From IMG/VR virus record IMGVR_UViG_3300031951_000044: DNA of 64,000 bases. One strand, given 5' to 3'. The stretch comes from a virus (taxonomy: Duplodnaviria; Heunggongvirae; Uroviricota; Caudoviricetes). A program made the translations under genes and the position numbers. Within the stretch, counting starts at the first letter, position 1, and each line of letters begins with the position of its first letter. The notes beneath the pieces were generated by a model that was given only the letters and a program-made list of their open reading frames with translations, was not told the DNA's origin and ran no database searches. Positions 6,831-32,674 of this stretch are shown one piece after another.

Positions 6831-7049
6831 TATACCATCGCCATAACTTTCGTTTTAGGCGTACCGTGTCTAGTCTCTGCACCTTCATGATTTTCATCAC
6901 GCTTGGCTCAGGATTGGCAGTTAAGCGTTCCCTGAATTTACGGTATTCTACATTCACCTTTTCAAGTGATGCACTCAAATTCTAACTACCTGAAAATGAG
7001 GTAGTTAAGTCTAAAGTCTGTTGTGTTTACCAATTTCACCACGGGAGCA

Positions 7050-7075
7050 TTAAGTCAAAGAACATCACAAAGATA
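7050..7075 (-). promoter_or_regulatory. promoter motif upstream of tRNA cluster (repeat copy 1)
   Basis: aagtcaaagaacatcacaaagatac (gene strand TAtcTTTGtgatgttctttg); identical 20-mer again at 7245-7264. Confidence 0.5.
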
Positions 7076-7244
7076 CAACATCCATTTCACATTTCCAAAT
7101 TAAATTGTTCCGGTGACTAAAAATATTAATGGTTAGGAATATTTGCGCCAAATAACAGCATAACGCTGTGTTCCTTTGCGTCAGAACATAAATCTTGGGA
7201 TTTGTAAGACCTAACGATACCCAAGCGTCACCGAAACAATCTAA

Positions 7245-7264
7245 TCAAAGAACATCACAAAGAT
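7245..7264 (-). promoter_or_regulatory. promoter motif (repeat copy 2) driving ~170-nt ORF-less transcript 7080-7240
   Basis: caaagaacatcacaaagata repeated. Confidence 0.4.
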
Positions 7265-7502
7265 AAGCATTATTTTCATATCTCCAACACTTACCTGAAA
7301 ATTTTCATATCTGTGGGTGTGCAAGTTCATGTGGTGGGATTACGGTTTACCCACATCGCTGGTCGCAGACCATGCAGTTGTCGCTTTACAATCACACATG
7401 AACATAGGTCGTTTACACAACCGAAGTTTCTCTTCTCCCGACCAAGGAGCGGTCTTGACCCACAGATATGATATTCAAAGAACTCTTTTACTTTTCGGTG
7501 GG

Positions 7503-7525
7503 GGTCGGTGACGTTTTCACCGACC
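7503..7525 (-). terminator. stem-loop downstream of AT-hook mini-gene 1
   Basis: ggtcggtg-acgtttt-caccgacc perfect 8-bp stem; weak U-tract. Confidence 0.35.
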
Positions 7526-7558
7526 CTCTCCACCTACTTAACCAAACCAACCAACCAA

Positions 7559-7717
7559 TTATCCTTGTGCTTCCTCAGCTTTCCTTGCTTCTCGCTCTGC
7601 TCGTTCGCGCAACTTTTGTTGACGCTTAGAGTCAGGTTTAACAGAACCTTTGGGACGACCGCGCTTGCGCTTTGCAGTTTCCACAGACGTTACCGGTGCT
7701 TCAAGAGTTGCTTCCAT
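7559..7717 (-). CDS. AT-hook mini-protein (52 aa), paralog 1
   Basis: manual ORF MEATLEAPVTSVETAKRKRGRPKGSVKPDSKRQQKLRERAEREARKAEEAQG; RGRP AT-hook; own TAacTTTG promoter at ~7745-7765. Confidence 0.4.
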   Translation of the reverse strand: MEATLEAPVTSVETAKRKRGRPKGSVKPDSKRQQKLRERAEREARKAEEAQG

Positions 7718-7857
7718 CGTTTTTCGTGTTTAAGGTTTGTGTTTCTGTTACCGATACAAAGTTAACTATTCTTATTCAATTTTGCAAGTCTTTTTTCTCT
7801 TTTTTTTCGGTGGGGGATCGGATGACCAATTTCACCCGACCCAAATACCCCACCTAC

Positions 7858-7996
7858 TTATGCTTCCACTTCAACAGTCTTATGTGCATCTCGCTCTGCT
7901 CGTTCGCGCAACTTTTGTTGACGCTTAGAGTTAGGGTTCACCGAACCTTTGGGACGACCGACTTTACGCTTCTCACTTACCACTACATTTTCCATG
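7858..7996 (-). CDS. AT-hook mini-protein (46 aa), paralog 2
   Basis: MENVVVSEKRKVGRPKGSVNPNSKRQQKLRERAERDAHKTVEVEA; tandem duplicate of 7559..7717. Confidence 0.4.
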
Positions 7997-8082
7997 TGTA
8001 CTTAGATTTTAGTTAGACATTTAATTTACCGAGACAAAATTACAACCTTCATTTGATTTATGCAAATCTTTTTTGTTAATTT

Positions 8083-11858: not shown

Positions 11859-12126
11859 AGCTACAACAAAAATTCAAAAATACAAGCGCCAACGAAAAAT
11901 AATTTTTGACCATACCCCACACTAATAAGGAACGTGCGTGTGCGCGAAGTATACGCAAAAGACTTCGTATTTCCAAATAGTTTGAAAGAAAAAGTTATTA
12001 ACAGAAAAAAAATGTTAAAATCCTTGCTTTTGTTATATTTATTGTTATATGTTCTTTAGCTATTGCAGAATCAAAAAGTTCTCCGTATCTTGCTGGGTTT
12101 TTGAGATTAATTCGGTCCTATTAGAC

Positions 12127-12240
12127 GTTATGGACGCTATTGTATTAAGCTGTATAGCGTCTATTGTATTAGGCGTTATGGACGCTATTGTATTAAGCTG
12201 TATAGCGTCTATTGTATTAGGCGTTATGGACGCTAATAGG
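12127..12240. repeat. 48-bp tandem repeat x2.3 (iteron-like) inside 650-bp noncoding region
   Basis: gttatggacgctattgtattaagctgtatagcgtctattgtattaggc repeated at 12127, 12175, 12223; flanked by ttaataagttaataagttaat micro-repeats. Confidence 0.8.
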
Positions 12241-23341: not shown

Positions 23342-24142
23342 TCAAACTGGCAAATTAATTTTGTTCAAAATTTGATTTGAAACGTGTGTGTATATTTCTG
23401 TGGTTTTAACATTTGAATGACCAAGAATTTTTTGAATAATTCTTAAATCTGTTCCATTTTCTAATAAGGATGTTGCAAAACTGTGTCTAAGTGTGTGTAT
23501 ATGTCCATCAGATTCAATATATTTTTTGTATATTTTCTGACAACTACCTATTGAATATTTAGTACTGTTTTGTCCATTGAAGAGATATTCCTTTGGGATA
23601 TAATTTTTATAATAAGTTCTTAATAGTCTTAATACATTTTGAGATAATGGAACAACTCTATCTTTTCTTCCTTTTGCGTTCTTAATGTGGATTAACATTC
23701 GCTTGGAATCAATATCCTCTATTTTAAGATTAATTATTTCTGAGACTCGTAGACCAACTGAAAAAGTTAAGGTGAGAATTGCTTTGTGTTTGAGATTATC
23801 AATCTTATTTAATTTATCAATGATTGAATTTGAATCAATTACTTTTGGTAGTTTCTTCTCAGATTTAGGTCTTTTAAACGATATTTTATCATATTTTTTA
23901 TTAAGACCAAATTTGTAGAGAAATCTTATTGCGTTAATGATTTGGTTTTGTTGTGCTGTTGAAGTGAATTTATAATTATCTAAATAGGATTGAAAATCTT
24001 GAGCATTACAATGTATTACTTGTTTACTACCAATGTGATTTAAGAAATTTTTTATATGTGAAAGATAATTATCTTTTGTTCTTGGTGAATAGTTTAAATA
24101 TATAAACTTTTCTTCACAAATCTTAATAATTTTATTATTCAA
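23342..24142 (-). CDS. tyrosine site-specific recombinase (Xer/IntI-like, 266 aa)
   Basis: GLRVSE (box I Arg); HTLRHSFATSLLENGTDLRIIQKILGHSNVKTTEIYTHV (H-x-x-R, catalytic Tyr); apparent TTG start. Confidence 0.8.
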   Translation of the reverse strand: MNNKIIKICEEKFIYLNYSPRTKDNYLSHIKNFLNHIGSKQVIHCNAQDFQSYLDNYKFTSTAQQNQIINAIRFLYKFGLNKKYDKISFKRPKSEKKLPKVIDSNSIIDKLNKIDNLKHKAILTLTFSVGLRVSEIINLKIEDIDSKRMLIHIKNAKGRKDRVVPLSQNVLRLLRTYYKNYIPKEYLFNGQNSTKYSIGSCQKIYKKYIESDGHIHTLRHSFATSLLENGTDLRIIQKILGHSNVKTTEIYTHVSNQILNKINLPV

Positions 24143-24200
24143 GTCCTTTATTTTTAAGTGGTTAGATTATACTTACTTATATATACTAGTTATGTATAAT

Positions 24201-24407
24201 TTATTCCCAAATGATAACGCCTTTCATATTACCATGTGGATTAGTAAAAACGCCTTCATCATCTAAATCATACATATCCATAGTTCCAGAAAAATCAACT
24301 TGAATTGTGTTTAATTTTCCGTCCAAATTCCAATGAAGTGTTTTTACTTTTTTAATACCCCAGTCTTTACCGTGAATGTCGGTTATTTTAATTTTTGGTT
24401 GTTTCAT
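24201..24407 (-). CDS. cassette ORF, hypothetical
   Basis: first ORF upstream of recombinase; followed upstream by attC-like site. Confidence 0.45.
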   Translation of the reverse strand: MKQPKIKITDIHGKDWGIKKVKTLHWNLDGKLNTIQVDFSGTMDMYDLDDEGVFTNPHGNMKGVIIWE

Positions 24408-24439
24408 AAACTTTTATTTTAATTTGTGAATAAACTATA

Positions 24440-24533
24440 CATAACAAGGTGTATATGTAATTTTTTTTACAAAGGTACGAATAAGTTTTGACATTTCCAA
24501 ATAAAAAACTACATATACACCCAATCGTTAGGC
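24440..24533 (-). repeat. attC-like imperfect palindrome (site A) with internal TAccTTTG promoter
   Basis: +strand cACATAAC-aa-GGTGTATATGTA ...48 nt... TACATATACACC-caatc-GTTAGGc. Confidence 0.6.
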
Positions 24534-24537
24534 GCAA

Positions 24538-24756
24538 TTACAACAAACCCTTCGAGAAAAGTTGTGCAATTTGATTTTCGGTTAAATCTTCGCCTTTGAG
24601 CATTGCAGGTTCATTTACTCTTGTGCCATCGTGTTTAATTGTGTAGGTAACAGGATACTCTTTCTTCGGGTCAACAAATTTGACCAAGTAACTGCGCCTA
24701 ACAACGTATTGCTGAACATTGCCAGCTTCGTCTTTAACTTCAACTCTGATTTTCAT
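24538..24756 (-). CDS. cassette ORF, hypothetical
   Basis: ORF bounded by repeat elements. Confidence 0.45.
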   Translation of the reverse strand: MKIRVEVKDEAGNVQQYVVRRSYLVKFVDPKKEYPVTYTIKHDGTRVNEPAMLKGEDLTENQIAQLFSKGLL

Positions 24757-24823
24757 ATTTATTTTTTTGTTTTTAATTCAACATTTGTGTTTCAAATTGG
24801 CAACGTCAGCAATACGCAAACCG

Positions 24824-25105
24824 TTATATGCCACCTTGCGGTCTCAGCAACAAGTACCATCCGTTTTTTATGACATCTTCCCAAATCAATACTTCTGCAT
24901 TCAAAGATTGTGCTTGTTCAGTTATACCACCTTGTGCAAGTTGCCAAAGCATATTCATATTCAAAACATCTTCACGACTGATAAAGTATTGTTTTTTCAG
25001 TTCCAATTTTGACCAATCCCATGTTAACCCTTTCCTTCCCAAATCAAAAAGGCGGCATATAACAGCAGTTTGGCAAGATGCGGGGTTTTGTACTTCGTTT
25101 GACAT
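24824..25105 (-). CDS. cassette ORF, hypothetical
   Basis: stop codon overlaps aaaccGTTAtatg core. Confidence 0.4.
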   Translation of the reverse strand: MSNEVQNPASCQTAVICRLFDLGRKGLTWDWSKLELKKQYFISREDVLNMNMLWQLAQGGITEQAQSLNAEVLIWEDVIKNGWYLLLRPQGGI

Positions 25106-25171
25106 ATTGTTTTTTATTTAAAAATTTGTAATTCTAATCGTCTTTAGTGCTGTAAATCCCGCACCTCGCCA

Positions 25172-25557
25172 AGCTGCGAAACGTTATGTGTAAGTGTTCC
25201 ACCCATCGTTCTAATCAACATCTATGTTTAAAATTTTAAAAGAAAAATTATTTGTTAAATGGTTCACTAAACATAGTTTTAGGATATGTTTCTTCCTTTC
25301 TACTTGAAGGGTTAAATATAGTTACTCGTCCAACACCATACGGTTGGTTATCATATTTAATAACCAAATAATCCTTTTTATTATGAAGTTGGTAATTATC
25401 TTCTGGTGCGTTTTTACATGTGACGTATAACCCATCTTTAAAGTTTTCAAATTTTTTAACTATGTTTCCCATAATCTATATATTAATTTTTCTTTTAAAA
25501 TTTTTGTTCAGTTCTCCGATTAAACATTCCACCTTAATAATCCACACCTACACATAA
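25172..25557 (-). mobile_element. conserved cassette frame copy 1 (12-bp terminal IRs GTTATGTGTARG, ~80-nt conserved subterminal arms, inner IR AAATTTTAAAAGAAAAAT) carrying ORF 25248..25472
   Basis: arms near-identical to those at 29257..29820 while enclosed ORFs are unrelated. Confidence 0.55.
25248..25472 (-). CDS. cassette ORF, hypothetical (74 aa)
   Basis: inside conserved frame. Confidence 0.45.
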   Translation of the reverse strand: MGNIVKKFENFKDGLYVTCKNAPEDNYQLHNKKDYLVIKYDNQPYGVGRVTIFNPSSRKEETYPKTMFSEPFNK

Positions 25558-25610
25558 CAAATGATAAACAACATTAAAACGATTGTTTATCATCGGACGT
25601 TATTCCCCAT

Positions 25611-26063
25611 TTAAAAAACCTCAAATGGAGACACGTAATACATATTTGGTTTATAATCTGCGTATGATACCGTTTTCTGTTGTAAATATATCTTTATACA
25701 CGATGAATCTTTTGCAGTCAACCAAAAATATTTCACATTCTTACTATATTTTTCATCGTTAATTCTATATTCTTGCCCCTTTTGAATACAAATATTTTCG
25801 TCAATAACTTGATTTCTGTTAAATTCAATAAACGCTCCATAATCTCCAATTACAATTCTTTCATATCCTTTTGAAATTATTGTACCGTTTGCTGTTTTTA
25901 ACTCAAATTCAGAATCACCATTGATATTCAAACATTTTGGTATTTCAGACAAATATTGGTTTCTTACCTTGTCAGATAATTCTGATGGAAGTTTTTTGTA
26001 TTTATATTGTAATGCTAATTCGTCTTGTAACATAAAAAATTGGATAAAAACGGGGCATAACAC
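25611..26063 (-). CDS. cassette ORF, hypothetical (150 aa)
   Basis: ORF bounded by repeat elements. Confidence 0.45.
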   Translation of the reverse strand: MLCPVFIQFFMLQDELALQYKYKKLPSELSDKVRNQYLSEIPKCLNINGDSEFELKTANGTIISKGYERIVIGDYGAFIEFNRNQVIDENICIQKGQEYRINDEKYSKNVKYFWLTAKDSSCIKIYLQQKTVSYADYKPNMYYVSPFEVF

Positions 26064-26178
26064 ACGGTATAAAAAATTGGGGCGTGTGTGCGTTCCCGAA
26101 GGTTTGTACTATTAATTATCATTGTATCGGTGCGAAAGTTTATATCTTTTAATCCCCAACTTTTCATACCGTCAACCG

Positions 26179-26481
26179 TTATGCGGGATCGAGAACAATG
26201 CCGTGCGCTTTAAACACCGCCTCGACCTCTCCGATCCCGACCGCCCACACAATATCGTGTCCTCCGGATCCATCGCTTATATGCAGTCGTTCCTGTTCTG
26301 CGAGAATCTCTCGCACCATCGCCTTCACCTCGCTCTCGGTGAACACGCGCTCTTTCTTTTCCGAGCTCGCCTGAGGCTTTTCGCCTGAGCAGCGGCGGCA
26401 CGGTCTTGGTGGATTGATGCTGATGTGACCTCCGCACTTGGAGCACTTGCCGCTCGATGGGCCTAACTTCCTTTTTGCCAT
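26179..26481 (-). CDS. GC-rich cassette ORF, zinc-ribbon-like protein
   Basis: CSKCGGH...CRRCSG; ~60% GC versus ~30% genome background; flanked by ...caaccGTTATGCgg (26171-26185) and attC-like 26521-26581. Confidence 0.5.
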   Translation of the reverse strand: MAKRKLGPSSGKCSKCGGHISINPPRPCRRCSGEKPQASSEKKERVFTESEVKAMVREILAEQERLHISDGSGGHDIVWAVGIGEVEAVFKAHGIVLDPA

Positions 26482-26520
26482 TGTACCTTTTGCTTTTTAC
26501 CGAGTGAAAAAGAATGACCC

Positions 26521-26581
26521 CGCATAACAGTCGGGTTGCCGTTATTGAATGCACAACGGCAACCCGCCGAACCGTTATGTG
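26521..26581 (-). repeat. attC-like site (site F) upstream of GC-rich cassette
   Basis: cgCATAAC-agtcg-GGTTGCCGTT-attgaatgcac-AACGGCAACC-cgccgaacc-GTTATGTg. Confidence 0.55.
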
Positions 26582-26586
26582 TAATA

Positions 26587-26994
26587 CTACATTTGTTCTC
26601 CGATTTGAGTTTCATCTGCAATATCTTTTTCTTTTCTTTTTTCTCCACGCTCTTTAAGAGTAATAATATTATTTCTCAAAGAATTTATTTTTCTTTCGTA
26701 TTCTTTGAATTTTAAATATTCATCATCATATATTTTTATTCTTTCAACATTTTCTGGTGTGTTTTCAGCCAAAGCCCAAGAATAAGTTGCTTGTAATCTT
26801 TCACCAGTTTCTTTACAAGTAAATTCATAACTGCCATTATCTCGTTGAATAACATTATTCATTATCGTTCCAATTTTAATTGGTTTACTTTCAAGTTTGT
26901 TAGGTATCCAAACCATATCTAATCTGTAAATATATTCCATATCAGATTTTGGTTTTCCATTGTCTTTATCTATTAAACAATCAAATATTCCCAT
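26587..26994 (-). CDS. cassette ORF, hypothetical
   Basis: ORF in array. Confidence 0.45.
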   Translation of the reverse strand: MGIFDCLIDKDNGKPKSDMEYIYRLDMVWIPNKLESKPIKIGTIMNNVIQRDNGSYEFTCKETGERLQATYSWALAENTPENVERIKIYDDEYLKFKEYERKINSLRNNIITLKERGEKRKEKDIADETQIGEQM

Positions 26995-26995
26995 T

Positions 26996-27595
26996 TTATT
27001 TATTATTAAATATGTTTATAATTTTTCGAATTTCATCTTGTTTCCAAGGTCTATTCTTACTGCCATCTTCAGAAATTGTTAAATAATCACCATCATATCC
27101 CAATGCTCTTTCAATTAACCAAGGTCTTGATTCTTGTTCAACTGCAATCCACCCATCTTTTGTTTTACCAATTGGAGTACTTCCTTCCTTAATTTCTTCA
27201 CTACCATCTAATGGTAATAAATCTCTTGTTTCATTATAAATTATTCTTGTATCTTTGAATAGTTCATACACTAATCCAACATCTTCACCAGTCCATTCAG
27301 TATCTTCTGTTTGATGTTCATATTTTTTAGCAAGAAAATAACCATCAGATTCTGTTCTTAAAACATATTTTTGATGTAATATTTTTCTACATTCTCTATT
27401 ATAATGGTCAATAGTGTTTTGAATATCTTCTTGTCCTTTCCAATAGTTGTCTTCGCCTACCGAAAGCGAATCACCATTTTGTGGCTGTTCACCAACAAAT
27501 TTTTGATTATCTAAACAAGCCAGTATCATTTCAAAGGAATCTTCCGATATTACAATGTTTCCTTTACCGTCTTTTTTTGCTTCAATTTTCATCAT
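26996..27595 (-). CDS. cassette ORF, hypothetical (199 aa)
   Basis: ORF in array. Confidence 0.45.
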   Translation of the reverse strand: MMKIEAKKDGKGNIVISEDSFEMILACLDNQKFVGEQPQNGDSLSVGEDNYWKGQEDIQNTIDHYNRECRKILHQKYVLRTESDGYFLAKKYEHQTEDTEWTGEDVGLVYELFKDTRIIYNETRDLLPLDGSEEIKEGSTPIGKTKDGWIAVEQESRPWLIERALGYDGDYLTISEDGSKNRPWKQDEIRKIINIFNNK

Positions 27596-27599
27596 AGTT

Positions 27600-27917
27600 T
27601 TAAATTTTAGTTTTTAACATTTCTTTATAAGCATTACCTGTATCAAATTGTTGTTCAAATGTTGGATTTGGATAATGTTCGTTTTTAATCCAATTATCGT
27701 GATGTTCAAATGTTCTCCATTCATTATCACGTAATTCTTTTACCATATTCATCAATCCAGTTCCAACTTTCATATCAGAAGGAATTTCAACTCCACCATC
27801 TGGTGTAACTTTTACAATTGTTTCTAATTTCATATTATTTATTTTTAAATTTTTCAAATTTATTTTGTCCAACCCACAAAAAAGAAAAGAAAAAGGTTCA
27901 GTTCTCCGAATGAGCAT
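27600..27917 (-). CDS. cassette ORF, hypothetical
   Basis: ORF in array. Confidence 0.45.
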   Translation of the reverse strand: MLIRRTEPFSFLFCGLDKINLKNLKINNMKLETIVKVTPDGGVEIPSDMKVGTGLMNMVKELRDNEWRTFEHHDNWIKNEHYPNPTFEQQFDTGNAYKEMLKTKI

Positions 27918-27941
27918 TTGTAGTTTAAATCCGTACTACTG

Positions 27942-28033
27942 CTAACATCGTGTATAAAACATAGCCAATTAAGGTCTGTGGTTTATATTAAGTATTGTGC
28001 GTGGCTACGTTTCATACACCCAACCGTTAGGTG
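27942..28033 (-). repeat. attC-like site (site G)
   Basis: CTAAC-atc-GTGTATAAAAC ...48 nt... GTTTCATACAC-ccaacc-GTTAGGTG. Confidence 0.55.
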
Positions 28034-28042
28034 TAATAAATT

Positions 28043-28231
28043 TTACTCCAACACACCCTTCAAAGTTCGTTTCTTCATTTCACCAAAGTTTCTTTCTTCT
28101 TCTGCCAATTTTCGTAGTTCTTCTTGAAGTTCCATTGGTATTTTATCACCATACTTACCAAGTATCTGAAATAATAATGTTTCCCTACCTAAAGAAACTT
28201 TCATATCAATTAACAGTTGTATATCTTTCAT
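28043..28231 (-). CDS. cassette ORF, hypothetical
   Basis: ORF in array. Confidence 0.4.
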   Translation of the reverse strand: MKDIQLLIDMKVSLGRETLLFQILGKYGDKIPMELQEELRKLAEEERNFGEMKKRTLKGVLE

Positions 28232-28250
28232 AATCCGTAAAATTTACATA

Positions 28251-28383
28251 CACCTAACAAAGTATAACCAAAAGTGGGGTGTAGTTCCAACATTCAGATA
28301 TTGTGCTTCTAATTTACTTTTGTAGGTAAGTCAGGGTTCGGCACTTCTAATCCCCACCTTCGGTTATACTCAACCGTTATAAG
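28251..28383 (-). repeat. attC-like site (site B), nested hairpin
   Basis: CACCTAAC-aa-AGTATAACC...aaGTGGGG...CCCCACctt...GGTTATACT-caacc-GTTATAAG. Confidence 0.6.
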
Positions 28384-28395
28384 TAATAAAACAAA

Positions 28396-28626
28396 CTACT
28401 TTATTCTGTTTATTTTTATAATAAATATTTTAGTGAAAATCATCCAGATCATAAATAAAGTTGAAGACGAAACTAAAATATTTACCAAAAATTGTTTTAC
28501 ACTGAATCCAAAGTGTGATAAATACCACCACCCACTAATAGAACTACCTATTGTTAAAAATAAACAGAATAAAATAAACAGTGTATATAATATACCATCT
28601 AGCGTAATTTGACCTTCAATTTTCAT
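28396..28626 (-). CDS. cassette ORF, small membrane protein
   Basis: hydrophobic 76-aa ORF. Confidence 0.4.
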   Translation of the reverse strand: MKIEGQITLDGILYTLFILFCLFLTIGSSISGWWYLSHFGFSVKQFLVNILVSSSTLFMIWMIFTKIFIIKINRIK

Positions 28627-28656
28627 ATTTAATTATTATTTAGTTTGTTTTACATA

Positions 28657-28813
28657 CTTATAACAACAAATATAAGAAATAAATTTTGATTTATCTAATT
28701 TTTATAGGTAAAATTTACTTCTCATATTTACAACCGTTATGCAAAAGTGTGGCAAGAAAGTTTTGTCTATAATTTGAAATTTTGGAGTTGCCACACCTTC
28801 GCATAACAACGGC
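28657..28813 (-). repeat. two adjacent attC-like sites (possible ORF-less cassette)
   Basis: cTTATAAC-aa-CAAATAT...ATATTTA-caacc-GTTATGCaa overlapping GTTATGC-aaaa-GTGTGGCAA...TTGCCACAC-cttc-GCATAACaacgg. Confidence 0.45.
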
Positions 28814-28858
28814 TAAAACGACAATATTTAAAAACTTTCCCACCGCACAATTGAACAA

Positions 28859-29182
28859 TTAAGAATTACCAAGTATAATGTCAATCACTTCTTTTGGTGC
28901 TTCTATCAATTCATCTTCACGGTATTTTCTCCATCCTGCCTGATTTTCTTCTTGTGAAATACTGTGAGCAATCACCCAAGTAAATTCTCCTTTTTCAGAA
29001 TACTTTTCTACAAATTCCTTTTGAGCAATTACATGTTTGCACAAATAAAATACCTGCGTTCCTGCATAGCAAGTTTGTGCAATCACTTCCATTACTTCCA
29101 AAGCACTCATCTGGTTCTTTGAATTGGTGTCGAATTTTCTTTTCACCAAATTGTTTACGTCAAATTTTGTTTTGATTTCCAT
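28859..29182 (-). CDS. cassette ORF, hypothetical
   Basis: ORF in array. Confidence 0.45.
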   Translation of the reverse strand: MEIKTKFDVNNLVKRKFDTNSKNQMSALEVMEVIAQTCYAGTQVFYLCKHVIAQKEFVEKYSEKGEFTWVIAHSISQEENQAGWRKYREDELIEAPKEVIDIILGNS

Positions 29183-29256
29183 TTTACTTTTTGTTTTTAA
29201 TTATTATTATTTAATTGATTAATTATTTCCCTCGCAAAAGTTTTTAAATACTGCGT

Positions 29257-29820
29257 TTAGCCGATATACGTTATGTGTAAGCGTTCCGTTCATCGTTCTA
29301 ATCAACATTTCGGTTGAAAATTTTAAAAGAAAAATCAAAATCCATAATGAAACCATTTATCATCATTTGGTAGTTGTTCTTTTAATTGTTTGTTTATTTT
29401 TCCCACTATATTTTGAGCAGTAACCGAAGTTATACCTTTAACATCAAAATCATAAGCAATTTGACCGATTGAATATACAAACATTCTCAGTAATTCTCTT
29501 GGTATATCAAATGTTATATCCACATCATAAGTATAGTTTTTACCAGAAAAGTTTATTTCGTCACTTATTGGTCGCATAACTAAGTGATGTAAATCTTCAA
29601 ACCAATCCTTACTCAGTCTTTCACAACCTTTTTTCATCATTGACTCTACCCAAGTTCCAGATGAATTCCACTCTTCTCTTGTTAGAGAAATTTTAACCAC
29701 CTTTTCAAAATAATTGATAGTTGTAATTTTTTGTTTATAATTCATATATTTTTCTTTTAAAATTTTTGTTCATTTCTACTATTTAACATTCTACCTTAAT
29801 TAACCACACCTACACATAAC
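29257..29820 (-). mobile_element. conserved cassette frame copy 2 carrying ORF 29335..29745
   Basis: acGTTATGTGTAAGcgttcc...ttctaatcaacat...aaattttaaaagaaaaat | ORF | atttttcttttaaaatttttgttca...ccacaCCTACACATAAC. Confidence 0.55.
29335..29745 (-). CDS. cassette ORF, hypothetical (136 aa)
   Basis: inside conserved frame. Confidence 0.45.
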   Translation of the reverse strand: MNYKQKITTINYFEKVVKISLTREEWNSSGTWVESMMKKGCERLSKDWFEDLHHLVMRPISDEINFSGKNYTYDVDITFDIPRELLRMFVYSIGQIAYDFDVKGITSVTAQNIVGKINKQLKEQLPNDDKWFHYGF

Positions 29821-29909
29821 AAGGTGTATAAGAAAGTTTGCTATAAAGTTCAGTGGTTAATTTGAAAGTTCATCTAAGCAAACCTTCTCATACACCCAAC
29901 CGTTATAAG
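29813..29909 (-). repeat. attC-like site (site C)
   Basis: CACATAAC-aa-GGTGTATAAG...CTCATACACC-caacc-GTTATAAG. Confidence 0.6.
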
Positions 29910-29916
29910 TAATAAT

Positions 29917-30162
29917 TTAAAATTTATTTATTATTTTATTTTCAATATATTCTTTAACTTTTGACGGTAATATTTGTGTTGGAAATGACCCTTCCGCACC
30001 AACATACATTTCACTACTTGCAACATCACTTGCATCTATTTTATAATATTGTTCATCTGGTGAACATATCGTTACATGAGTTACCTCACCCCATCTACCA
30101 GAACCAACCCAATAAAACCATAGGTCATTTCCAATATGTATTTTTCTTTTCGTTTTTTTCAT
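29917..30162 (-). CDS. cassette ORF, hypothetical
   Basis: ORF in array. Confidence 0.45.
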   Translation of the reverse strand: MKKTKRKIHIGNDLWFYWVGSGRWGEVTHVTICSPDEQYYKIDASDVASSEMYVGAEGSFPTQILPSKVKEYIENKIINKF

Positions 30163-30244
30163 AGGTATAAATTGTAAATTACATACTTATAACAGCAAAT
30201 AAAACACATTAAAACGATTGTTTATCATCAGACGTTATAAACAA

Positions 30245-30523
30245 TTAAATTATTTTCCGCAACAGTTCATCTTTATCCAAAAAAATATCATCCTGTTTAT
30301 ACCAATCATAACTAGATAAATGTCCACCTGAAGGATAGAATTGTTCATTAACTACAACCAAGTAATCAATTTCAATTCCATCCATTTGTTCCATTGTTTC
30401 GCCTTTGATATAAGGTACCCCATGAACAATTCTAATCTTTTCAATTTTACTTTTAAATATTTTTTTGGATAAAAGTATATATACTTCTTGTCCAACATCA
30501 TACTTTACATTATATGTTTTCAT
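30245..30523 (-). CDS. cassette ORF, hypothetical
   Basis: ORF in array. Confidence 0.45.
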   Translation of the reverse strand: MKTYNVKYDVGQEVYILLSKKIFKSKIEKIRIVHGVPYIKGETMEQMDGIEIDYLVVVNEQFYPSGGHLSSYDWYKQDDIFLDKDELLRKII

Positions 30524-30541
30524 AATAAAATAATTTAACGT

Positions 30542-30664
30542 GTTTATAACAACAAATATAAAACATTTATTTCAGCGTTCCAAATTTATTGTTGGTTTAT
30601 ATTTATATACTGTTTTTCAATTTAAGTTTAGTTTAAAACGTTTTATATTTGCAACCGTTATAAG
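30542..30664 (-). repeat. attC-like site (site D), perfect L boxes
   Basis: gTTTATAAC-aa-CAAATATAAAAC ...75 nt... GTTTTATATTTG-caacc-GTTATAAG. Confidence 0.6.
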
Positions 30665-30670
30665 CAAGTG

Positions 30671-32674
30671 CTACATCTCGTTTCCAAATATAGTCCCTAC
30701 ATGTAAATCTTTTTCTTTTCTTTTTTCTTCCCACGCTTTTTTTATTTCCATAGAAAGAAATGGTAAAATCGAAAAAAGTAGTTTATTTAAGTGTTTTAAA
30801 ACATAGTAAAACTCTGTTTCATATTTAATTCTCATATTGGAATTTGTGTCAGATTCATAAAATTCATTTTTAATATCCTCCGTCAACAAAGATGAATAAT
30901 AGTTTATAAATTCAACAAAACCCCTTACTGCTTTATTCAAATCAAATTCATTGACAAGTAAATCAAATTTATTTTCCAACTCTTTTACTTTAAAAAAAAT
31001 ATTTTCATCAACTTTTGTTTCATCATAATCATATATATATAGATTATTAAATAAATAACGGAGAAAGTTTCTTATTTTAAAATATTGTTTACCAGAGTTT
31101 TTTAATGAATCTTCCGAAAAGACAATATCGTTTTTAAAATCTGACAGTAAAACCCATAGTCTTAATACATCAGGGTTATATGTTTCATACAGCTTTTCCA
31201 AACTTCCGCCATTACCTTTTGATTTTGATAGTTTTTCTAATGTGTTATCAACAATAAATCCGTGTGTTATTATTCTTTTTGTTGGTACTCGACCAATCAT
31301 TGATGCTAATATAATCGAACTTTGAAACCACCCTCTGTGTTGGTCTGAACCTTCAATGTATATATCGGCAGGTTTATCATACATCATAAATGTAGAACCA
31401 CTATCAAACCAAACATCCAATATATCATTACTATTAGGTATTTTAACACCCCATTTTCTTTGTCTTGAAATACACCAATCTTTGCGTGAAAATATTGTCG
31501 TTGATAAACGATTTCTGTCTTTTGATGATAACTTTATTTCTTTTAAACAAGTCTTTATTTTGTTTAAATCAAAATCAAGATACGTTTGTTCCGTTAATAC
31601 TTTATACACCTTATTCCCTTCACGCCAATCAATTGGATAATCGTGTGTGTAAATTTCACGTTTATATACAAACTTTTCATCAATTTTAAAATCTTCTATG
31701 TGTTTTAATAAGCCGATTTTATCGCACACATTTTTGGGGGTTATGTTATTATCCATTAAAATTCGATAATCTTCATCACCGTGTCCACCGCAAAGATGTA
31801 CTATACCTGTTTTATCATCTGAAACGTAGTCATCATAAATAATTGGACATAAATCTCCATTGTGGTTATGATATGACTTAATATTACTCACATCAAACAA
31901 ATCATAATCTAAATTATTTTCAATAGCAAAACTTTCACTACAAATAATATTGTCAACAGTTTTAACATATTTTATATTATTACTTAAACATACTGCCTGA
32001 TTTCCGTTTACAGTCCATTCTGTTGTTGTCCAAACAAGTAATTTAAAACTATCAGAGTTGAATAGAAAATACAAAGATTCATCTTCTATTTTTTTATATT
32101 CAATTTCTGAGTTAGCCAATACTGTTTTTAATGTTGGTGAGTACCAAGTAGGCTTATTCTTTTTAAGAATTAGACCCGCATTTAGTAGTTGGTGGTATAT
32201 ATATAATTCTCTTTCTATAAAATCAATATCCATAGTTTTAAACCTACCTTCAGTTGGATAAATCCCGAAAAGTTCAAGAGTTTTATTTTGAATATCACAA
32301 TATTTGGTTGCGACTAATTTAGCATTTTGAATTAAATCACCACTCATTTCTTTTGCTTTATTTTCAATGGGTAAACCATGACAGTCCCAACCAAATGAAA
32401 CCCTAACTTTCTTACCTTTTGTTAAGTAATATTTTACAACAAAATCTTTCAAGGTTTTGTTTAAAAAATGTCCCAAATGTAATTCTCCATTGGCGTATGG
32501 TTCACCATCTTGTATAATGTATTCATCATTTGAATTTTCATACAAGTTGTTCACATAATCTTTGATAGAAGCGTTCAATAAAGTAAGTTTATCTCTATCT
32601 AACTTCTGTGTAATTTCTTCTTTTGGTAATAATACTTTATTCATTATTTTAAATTTTATTTTCCCACCACACAA
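30671..32674 (-). CDS. ileS: minimalist isoleucyl-tRNA synthetase-like class I aaRS (667 aa)
   Basis: PYANGELHLGH (HIGH), GWDCHGLPIE, WTTTEWT, DWCISRQRKWGV, DVWFDSGST, EGSDQHRGWF, KLSKSKGN (KMSKS) - IleRS signature blocks; CP1 and C-terminal regions much shorter than bacterial IleRS. Confidence 0.7.
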   Translation of the reverse strand: MCGGKIKFKIMNKVLLPKEEITQKLDRDKLTLLNASIKDYVNNLYENSNDEYIIQDGEPYANGELHLGHFLNKTLKDFVVKYYLTKGKKVRVSFGWDCHGLPIENKAKEMSGDLIQNAKLVATKYCDIQNKTLELFGIYPTEGRFKTMDIDFIERELYIYHQLLNAGLILKKNKPTWYSPTLKTVLANSEIEYKKIEDESLYFLFNSDSFKLLVWTTTEWTVNGNQAVCLSNNIKYVKTVDNIICSESFAIENNLDYDLFDVSNIKSYHNHNGDLCPIIYDDYVSDDKTGIVHLCGGHGDEDYRILMDNNITPKNVCDKIGLLKHIEDFKIDEKFVYKREIYTHDYPIDWREGNKVYKVLTEQTYLDFDLNKIKTCLKEIKLSSKDRNRLSTTIFSRKDWCISRQRKWGVKIPNSNDILDVWFDSGSTFMMYDKPADIYIEGSDQHRGWFQSSIILASMIGRVPTKRIITHGFIVDNTLEKLSKSKGNGGSLEKLYETYNPDVLRLWVLLSDFKNDIVFSEDSLKNSGKQYFKIRNFLRYLFNNLYIYDYDETKVDENIFFKVKELENKFDLLVNEFDLNKAVRGFVEFINYYSSLLTEDIKNEFYESDTNSNMRIKYETEFYYVLKHLNKLLFSILPFLSMEIKKAWEEKRKEKDLHVGTIFGNEM

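Follow-up and report, generated by a model that had tools for sequence, protein, structure and literature searches.

A GC-rich unit, probably a horizontally acquired mobile cassette, in an integron-like array of an AT-rich large phage

In integrons, recombining folded single strands is believed to require a domain that only the integron integrase IntI possesses (PMC7790495, PMC4792948), and the IntI-specific insert is held to enable single-strand attC recombination (PMC7790495, PMC8138268); components of integrons have been reported in phages (Qi et al. 2023, PMC9892861). In CTX phage, Xer enzymes exchange one pair of strands when a folded single strand meets a duplex site, and replication then resolves the product (PMC3442271). 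The promoter-early stem-loop (PeSL) units of T4-type phages also shuffle between genomes, and mini-circles have been proposed for them (Arbiol 2010, PMC2839356; Comeau 2014, PMC4122927), but they are defined by a strong sigma-70 promoter together with a terminator, and their exchange is homology-based, with no dedicated enzyme (PMC2839356, PMC4122927). Here we analyse a 64,000-nucleotide stretch of a Caudoviricetes genome (IMG/VR record IMGVR_UViG_3300031951_000044; henceforth the window), in which a unit rich in guanine and cytosine (GC) and carrying one small open reading frame (ORF) lies within an array of small genes separated by attC-like hairpin sites, at the end of which stands a gene for a Xer-like tyrosine recombinase (Table 1). 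An earlier note, made from the letters of the window, had proposed that this unit was acquired horizontally as a discrete cassette. We consider it likely that the unit is a mobile cassette which the integron-like array of this AT-rich large phage acquired horizontally from a GC-richer genome. A dedicated phage system that imports discrete cassettes from GC-richer genomes would be integron-like and is apparently undescribed: our literature search found phage-borne canonical integrons, attC clusters and PeSLs and did not find this arrangement described, an earlier description elsewhere being possible.

The composition of the unit sets it apart from its surroundings. Over its 396 bp the GC content is 55.1%, compared with 30% for the whole window, the background of which is AT-rich (about 25–38% GC per kb); within the unit the ORF has 56.8% GC, the leader 40% and the hairpin 52.5%, while the flanks have 34.5% on the left and 25.5% on the right. 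It is the most GC-rich 396-nt window in the 64 kb (z = 5.7), and a two-boundary likelihood fit placed the GC segment at 26169–26574, the edge in composition coinciding with the repeat core. In 100-nt windows, GC content is 46–62% between 26150 and 26580 (with a peak of 55–62% at 26150–26450) and goes down to 18–27% at 26600–26700. The ORF of the unit has a GC content at third codon positions of 0.63, as opposed to 0.15–0.21 for the neighbouring genes. The sliding-window and codon-usage checks suggested in the earlier note thus gave a peak limited to the unit; its figure of about 60% GC is slightly high for the unit as a whole. The other features it named are in place: an ORF with CSKCGG...CRRCSG on the minus strand, a perfect hairpin (26532–26566) between CATAAC and GTTATG cores (26523–26528 and 26574–26579), and bounds (26165–26581) that are a few bases off those of the crossover-defined unit. 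A second, milder GC rise was seen outside the array, at 7001–8000 (42.7% for that kb, with a 396-nt maximum of 49% at 7310).

Table 1. Features of the array in the window and blocks shared between related arrays (the arrow marks the predicted crossover).
Feature	Coordinates	Strand	Description
Xer-like tyrosine recombinase, 266 aa	23342..24142	-	at end of array
attI-like simple site	24143..24195	-	(A/C)TAAC-TAT(T/A)ATATATA, no hairpin partner
Array of about 13 cassettes separated by attC-like sites	24439..30663	-	between recombinase and synthetase genes
Array sites, first half	24441-24531, 24698-24827, 25059-25187, 25554-25603, 26057-26182, 26524-26578		
Array sites, second half	27942-28030, 28254-28380, 28660-28740, 29816-29906, ~30185-30240, 30544-30663		
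Degenerate array site	near 29270		core present, no clear hairpin partner
Native 130-nt attC-like site	26055..26184	-	R'' core ends GC-rich cassette; body belongs to next cassette (ORF 25611-26063)
GC-rich cassette	26179..26574	-	crossover to crossover, TAA↓C on coding strand = G↓TTATG on plus strand
ORF, 100 aa	26179..26481	-	N-terminal CxxC...CxxC zinc ribbon, ERVFTESEV motif, variable C-terminus
Leader GGGGTCATTCTTTTTCACTCGGTAAAAAGCAAAAGGTACA between site and ORF	26482..26521	-	first 6 nt extend R' arm
Own attC-like site of GC-rich cassette, 59 nt	26522..26580	-	ACATAAC-GGTTCGG-CGGGTTGCCGTT-loop-AACGGCAACCCG-ACT-GTTATGC, coding strand
Shared block	L070 7536-7957 = L069 8002-8423		422 nt, 97.6% identical
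Shared block	L041 6607-6921 = L064 2131-2445		315 nt, 100% identical
Shared block	L071 7703-8197 = L044 399-893		495 nt, 99.4% identical

The unit is also real and rare. Five contigs that contain it were retrieved, each from a different metagenome sample: four match at 100% identity and the fifth (L003) includes it in an alignment of 99.9% identity, which excludes an assembly artefact or chimera. It occurs in none of the 80 related phage arrays (i.e., those found beside relatives of the recombinase gene; see below), absence from related phages being another point on which the earlier note had asked for a check. Among 215 cassettes it is the only one to exceed the GC content of its own locus by at least 15 points, doing so by 25 points where the next cassette reaches 12.

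All DNA relatives of the cassette were found outside the AT-rich lineage, in contigs of 50–59% GC. Specifically, in contigs L006–L011 (50–53% GC) the match spans 26576–26320 at 86% identity and includes the N-terminal half of the ORF together with the leader and the hairpin; in L012 and L013 (51% GC) it spans 26352–26176 at 78% identity and includes the other, C-terminal half, as far as the core. Approached from the other side, the native sequence held in common with AT-rich relatives (L057, L034 and L031) stops at 26570–26573. Both junctions hence fall within shared cores, the left one inside AACGGTT and the right one inside TAAC, as anticipated for a discrete, core-bounded cassette. Moreover, in three families of contigs (L006–L011, L012/L013 and L117) the sites on either side of the cassette belong to the same structural family. 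When covariance model R1, built from AT-rich sites, was applied to GC-rich contigs, L006 yielded eight sites, each on the same strand as the zinc-ribbon gene, and L117, a contig of 59% GC with the phage-type genes DUF5131 and PAPS reductase, yielded one immediately upstream of its ORF homologue. Given that the sites of L006 and L117 fit the AT-rich model and that L117 has phage genes, the donors share this site family and were probably phages. The ORF product has three more homologues (P0002, P0005 and P0006), which are encoded in tightly packed gene clusters of 51–57% GC without sites; the gene family is thus native to GC-richer genomes. Horizontal acquisition from a GC-richer donor, as originally proposed, accords with these homologues, but the donors look like phages of moderate to high GC content and not necessarily like bacteria. 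We note that L117 (DLGQ01000074.1, 55 kb), which carries cassette sites, has been assigned to the bin Flavobacteriales bacterium UBA7690, but it probably stems from a phage and was placed in this metagenome-assembled genome by mistake. The GC-rich cassette serves as a natural tracer: a foreign composition, an intact site of the donor type and exact junctions together show that the array imports whole cassettes, and no other single finding speaks as clearly for the transfer of cassettes by the system between genomes that differ so much.

Within the cassette, the ORF ends with a TAA stop codon that falls in the GCATAAC core, and the leader, which is kept in L006, L012 and L117, carries a GGGGTC complementary to GATCCC at the end of the ORF. 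The hairpin has a perfect 12-bp stem (26532–26543 paired with 26555–26566) and an 11-nt loop, and AACCGTTATG occurs both at 26174–26183 and at 26570–26579. A covariance model from AT-rich relatives recognised the hairpin at 26524–26578 on the minus strand with 30.8 bits (E = 0.0013), and a near-identical copy of it lies upstream of the ORF homologue in L006–L011. The hairpin is thus the recombination site of the cassette itself and is found upstream of its ORF, whereas the GTTATGC at the other end of the cassette is part of the next, native site (about 39.5% GC; related to the site at 28254–28380 and to L074). The two ends of the cassette pair with each other (GATCCCGCATAAC with GTTATGCGGGGTC), and the corresponding ends in L012 and L117 (GATCCCGCCTAAC and GTTAGGCGGGGTC) show a compensatory change, from GCATAAC/GTTATGC in the window to GCCTAAC/GTTAGGC.

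The protein encoded in the cassette had no match to a Pfam, PHROG or NCBIfam family, and an AlphaFold model from six sequences (predicted local distance difference test 60, predicted template modelling score 0.26) was too poor for a fold search. The six members of the ORF family have an N-terminal zinc ribbon (except P0004, the N-terminus of which differs), an invariant ERxFTESEV motif and a variable C-terminus. The family is itself mosaic, with the protein of the window consisting of an N-terminal half like P0003 and a C-terminal half like P0004. The product is a small zinc-ribbon protein of phage origin that probably binds nucleic acid or protein.

The extent of the mobile unit follows from comparisons between arrays. 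Blocks common to otherwise unrelated arrays (Table 1) extend from the TAAC in the upstream site as far as the TAAC(GGTT) in the downstream one. Among pairs of homologous ORFs, the upstream site alone was shared in six (four of them independent) and the downstream site alone in one, and C-terminal homologues of ORF 26587–26994 in L057, L034 and L031 are each followed, after ...TAAC, by a different site body. On the basis of the block comparisons, the ORF pairs and these site swaps, we define the cassette as a C, spacer, site body, GTTAx, leader, ORF and xTAA, with a predicted crossover TAA↓C on the coding strand. On the plus strand of the window this crossover corresponds to G↓TTAT, and it matches the position of the attI-like site. 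The canonical integron rule, according to which an ORF is followed by its own attC and the crossover is at R' on the coding strand, was rejected on account of the block comparisons, the attI position and the GC-rich cassette.

Across cassettes in general, the two ends match each other. At the 3' end, the 6 nt beyond the R'' core (site i+1) show about 80% Watson-Crick complementarity to their counterparts beyond the R' core at the 5' end (site i; z = 8–17 over shuffles, n = 219), and the flanks of a single integrated site show no such complementarity. We dropped this pattern as a proof of the side on which the site body lies, given that both parsings predict complementarity. It supports, however, the co-evolution of the two cassette ends as one stem of 11–13 bp, which is expected if cassettes pass through a circle and is not expected under homologous shuffling.

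One alternative is homologous shuffling of the PeSL kind. In such a scenario the hairpins would be promoter/terminator cassettes, the GC-rich unit would have entered by homology at the cores and the recombinase would be uninvolved. The phage resembles T4 in having two RNA ligases, an SbcC/gp46-like protein and tRNAs, its small ORFs with stem-loops between them recall hyperplastic regions (PMC2839356, PMC4122927), some of the sites are followed by conserved leader blocks, and the junctions lie in shared cores of 7 nt that could serve as microhomology. By contrast, complementary cassette ends have no reason to arise under homologous exchange. Stable stem-loops are present at the array sites, yet a scan of 24000–31000, which used the sigma-70 consensus only, returned 42 sigma-70-type promoters (38.8 ± 5.5 in shuffled sequence) that are not placed regularly after the sites, and only 1 terminator-like site was found where 2.2 were expected, the stems lacking a T-run. 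Nor does shuffling by homology account for sites that occur only beside the recombinase gene and in one orientation, for the conserved simple site that abuts this gene, or for divergent sites that keep their structure through compensatory changes. We therefore regard this explanation as unlikely.

The structure of the sites can be described in more general terms. All sites of the array share one orientation, and the ORFs point toward the recombinase gene. On the coding strand a site consists of xTAAC, an unpaired spacer of 4–5 nt with the pattern G(G/T)T(T/G), a stem, a loop, the return stem, a T and GTTAx, with loops that vary from 11 to about 90 nt and cores (xTAAC/GTTAx) that fit RYYYAAC loosely, e.g., ACATAAC. 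For a covariance model based on 30 sites, of which 28 came from other contigs, matches in the window are confined to 24441–30656, and the best of them are all on the minus strand. Allowing up to one mismatch, AACCGTTATG occurs 10 times (4.1 expected), and 9 of these occurrences are on the plus strand within 24819–30662. The consensus hairpin from 30 sites of about 90 nt has 24 pairs, of which 16 show compensatory changes and few are broken; the stems pair without bulges, and the coding-strand spacer measures 4–5 nt on the 5' side versus 1–2 nt on the 3' side. Folded with DNA parameters, 161 of 169 sites were more stable as the coding strand than as the complementary one. Across 81 arrays (the window and L014–L093), site lengths, which range from 50 to about 130 nt, fall into classes of about 50, 81, 90 and 127 nt and the median cassette unit is 417 bp, with up to about 18 sites in related arrays.

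Hairpins so consistently favoured on the coding strand might instead act in RNA, as stability, processing or attenuation elements of a leftward transcript, with the GC-rich island an unrelated, illegitimate insertion. All genes of the array are co-transcribed leftward, the coding-strand fold was also favoured with RNA parameters (149 of 169 sites), and a conserved G.U pair is present in 29 of 30 sites. But an RNA role leaves unexplained why breakpoints lie precisely at the cores in several independent pairs of arrays, why the GC-rich unit brought a site of the same family from its donor and why cassette ends are complementary across an ORF; in addition, no Rfam family matches. Of the explanations weighed here, we find this one the most improbable.

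Several observations on the sites stand apart from this argument. A G.T(U) wobble is found at one stem position in the same 29 of 30 sites and is common at a second (columns 25:79 and 20:84), positions at which the opposite strand would show A.C mismatches; it is possible that the wobble is a mark of strand choice that replaces the extrahelical bases of integron sites. A mini-site of 50–54 nt, ATAACGTCCGATGATAAACAATCGTTTTAATGTTGTTTATCATTTGTTAT, at 25552–25605 and about 30185–30240, recurs in many loci (e.g., L014, L027, L028 and L064), with several copies per array that are 95–100% identical, meaning it is far more conserved than the other site classes. Two sites of the 127–130-nt class (24698–24827 and 25059–25187) overlap the starts of their downstream ORFs (24756 and 25105), so that part of the hairpin encodes the N-terminus. 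There are also direct repeats of 68–75 nt with 88–91% identity (25181–25248/29268–29336 and 25486–25560/29748–29822); one pair consists of an ORF 3' flank with the R'' core and the other of a leader from site to ORF start, and both recur in other loci. A search of viral and metagenome contigs with the hairpin pattern returned mostly unrelated palindromes, plus L007 and L008.

The gene at the end of the array encodes a tyrosine recombinase (Pfam Phage_integrase, 1.9e-37). Against NCBIfam models it scored 195 bits with XerA_Arch (cut-off 220), 161 with XerC and 159 with XerD, while the integron integrase model TIGR02249 gave 161 bits in two pieces (cut-off 265). As all scores are below the equivalog cut-offs, we consider the protein to be a relative of Xer and not an orthologue. 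Its best solved relative is XerA (4a8e, E = 3.9e-37). An alignment to IntI4 (2a3v) covers residues 17–174 and 209–257 of the recombinase (17–177 and 260–308 of IntI4) and leaves 34 residues where IntI4 has 82, i.e., the phage protein is about 48 aa shorter there and lacks the IntI-specific insert with the I2 helix. At least 80 relatives with 55–80% identity were found in IMG/VR viral contigs of up to 362 kb and 23–46% GC, whereas among deposited phages the best tblastn match had only 41% identity (Cellulophaga phage Ingeline).

Upstream of the recombinase gene, a motif common to 27 loci lies about 45–50 nt from the start codon. The sequence 5' of its TAAC (i.e., on the array side) is unrelated between loci, and BLAST conservation around it ends at 24192–24205; a simple site of the attI type would have this appearance. 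In most of the 80 loci, TAACGGTT clusters upstream of the recombinase gene in one orientation.

Such linkage is informative with regard to another possibility, namely that the array is a captured bacterial cluster of attC sites lacking an integron integrase (CALIN), in which ordinary attC sites are served in trans by a host IntI and the phage enzyme works in lysogeny or dimer resolution. Virulent phages are reported to carry attC clusters that lack an integrase and that IntI1 recombines (PMC9892861), the cores here approximate RYYYAAC/GTTRRRY, and L006 has ORFs in both orientations, like some chromosomal arrays. However, the array is linked to the recombinase gene and the attI-like site in 80 loci of one phage lineage, the extra bases lie in the spacer beside the cleaved core on the coding strand, and the site body accompanies the ORF downstream of it, opposite to the situation in integron cassettes. 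The window, moreover, encodes no canonical IntI and no second recombinase. A captured cluster seems to us very doubtful, somewhat more so than shuffling of the PeSL kind.

If the GC-rich unit is a mobile cassette of a dedicated phage system, the mechanism might be as follows. A cassette would be excised as a circle, its two ends pairing into an R stem of 11–13 bp; the coding-strand hairpin would be cut after TAA and exchanged with attI or another attC-like site, and the product would be fixed by replication, as in integrons and in the XerCD-mediated integration of CTX phage. We infer that the phage recombinase would be the catalyst, that its substrate would be single-stranded and that circles would exist. 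For the GC-rich cassette, a circle with the junction GATCCCGCATAA↓CGGTTCGG... recombining with a native ...ACATAA↓CGGTTGACGG... would yield both observed junctions, and with 26179–26574 taken out, ORF 26587 would again be followed by ...ACATAA↓CGGTTGACGG..., an ordinary site of the native kind. The predicted circle junction is GATCCCGCATAA↓CGGTTCGGCGGG, and that of an array lacking the unit is ...TATTACACATAA↓CGGTTGACGG.

Several points weigh against acquisition by such a system. The empty-site and circle junctions were not found in assembled viral contigs. The boundaries against L006 and against L012 each rest on half of the cassette, the ORF family being mosaic. The recombinase is without the insert to which single-strand recombination by IntI is attributed, and the bias toward G.T pairs on the coding strand would also fit an RNA role. 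Some shared blocks start at R' and not at R'' (26 vs. 38), although general statistics on the ends of high-scoring segment pairs are dominated by matches outside arrays and are weakly informative. Finally, a variant of the same phage (L003) carries an insertion bounded by a 36-bp direct repeat: compared with the window at about 28320, positions 1–1000 of L003 contain an ORF of 260 aa flanked by the repeat AATTAAA.CAACCAACCTCAATAATTTAA.ACAATGG, with the breakpoint inside the loop of an attC-like site and not at a core. Ordinary recombination therefore also reshapes the array, and this insertion, mediated by repeats, counts in favour of PeSL-like shuffling.

A broader claim, on which we are evenly divided, is that the system is a second kind of integron, in which a Xer-type recombinase without the I2 helix serves hairpin arrays whose sites lie upstream of their genes and exchanges the coding strand in a widespread lineage of large uncultured phages (the loci sampled have 23–46% GC, with related arrays in contigs of 50–59% GC). 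The claim includes a network of phage-to-phage cassette exchange across large compositional distances, to which we attach the same balanced confidence. Single-strand cassette recombination would then have been invented here independently, or else the system would survive as a relative of the transition from Xer to IntI. Were a plain Xer-like enzyme to do the job of an integron, the view that a domain particular to IntI is needed would have to be revised, and a tractable system for studying the origin of single-strand site recognition would be at hand. It would also provide a dedicated mechanism, beyond homologous shuffling, for the turnover of small accessory genes in large phages, which likely include anti-defence functions.

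With respect to the wider genome, nearly all genes of the window are on the minus strand, and they include two transfer RNAs (tRNAs), two RNA ligases, a class I aminoacyl-tRNA synthetase and the SbcC/gp46-like protein. The synthetase gene (667 aa, 30671–32674) abuts the distal end of the array, its stop codon directly followed by the TTATAAC of the first site. Neither megablast of 24000–29000 nor a distant blastn search with a native site gave a match among 50,697 deposited phages, and tblastn of the SbcC-like protein reached only about 24% identity, in uncultured huge phages; the lineage is thus without a close sequenced relative among these phages. A 48-nt tandem repeat containing GCGTTATGGACGC lies outside the array, at 12119–12235 (2.4 copies, 98% identity).

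Compared with Xer systems, the recombinase is closest to XerA and XerC/D, and the core xATAA↓C resembles the inner end of the Xer arms (..CATAA↓). Here, however, a single dedicated recombinase encoded by the phage is combined with an array of many sites, and cassettes are exchanged, as opposed to a whole element integrating at a chromosomal dif site. No 28-bp duplex site of the dif type, with two inverted 11-bp arms around a central region of 6–8 bp, was apparent in the attI-like motif, which was checked by eye only and is AT-rich and ambiguous. Acinetobacter plasmids carry pdif modules, which are likewise discrete sets of genes between Xer-type sites and occur in different contexts; pdif sites are duplex 28-bp XerC/XerD sites in alternating orientation that are used by the host XerCD. 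To our knowledge, pdif modules have no folded site and no array beside a dedicated recombinase gene. With PeSL regions the array has in common that small ORFan genes, each after a stem-loop intergenic element, occupy a variable region of a large, lytic-type phage. It differs in being tied to a recombinase gene and an attI-like site, and in having inverse cores, covarying stems and complementary ends without an enrichment of promoters or terminators.

The likeness to integrons goes furthest. In both, the gene for a tyrosine recombinase has next to it a simple site and an array whose cassettes are small and mostly carry one gene. The cassette sites of both are imperfect palindromes: their conserved cores are inverse to each other (xTAAC...GTTAx), a second box is also conserved, the spacer is unpaired, the loop varies, and compensatory changes keep the structure. 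In both, too, the crossover is at AA↓C, the best-folding strand that bears the crossover runs 5' to 3' toward the recombinase gene, and the stop codon of a cassette often lies inside the core. The differences are equally systematic. Integron attC sites have extrahelical bases in the L'' arm of the non-coding strand, whereas the phage stems have none and instead show a spacer that is 3–4 nt longer beside the cleaved core; the recombinase is Xer-like, without the IntI insert that holds the I2 helix; and the hosts are a lineage of large phages and not a bacterial chromosome or plasmid. The phage site body is upstream of its ORF, while an integron cassette is an ORF followed by attC, and the phage ORFs are on the recombined strand and directed toward the recombinase gene, meaning that a promoter of the Pc type cannot drive them. 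Although we ran no detector, we expect integron detection tools that require an IntI-type integrase or the order of ORF then site to miss or mis-parse these arrays. In function the phage array is closest to an integron, but because it lacks the IntI insert and the extrahelical bases, and because the order of site and ORF and the direction of the ORFs are reversed, it should not be filed as one.

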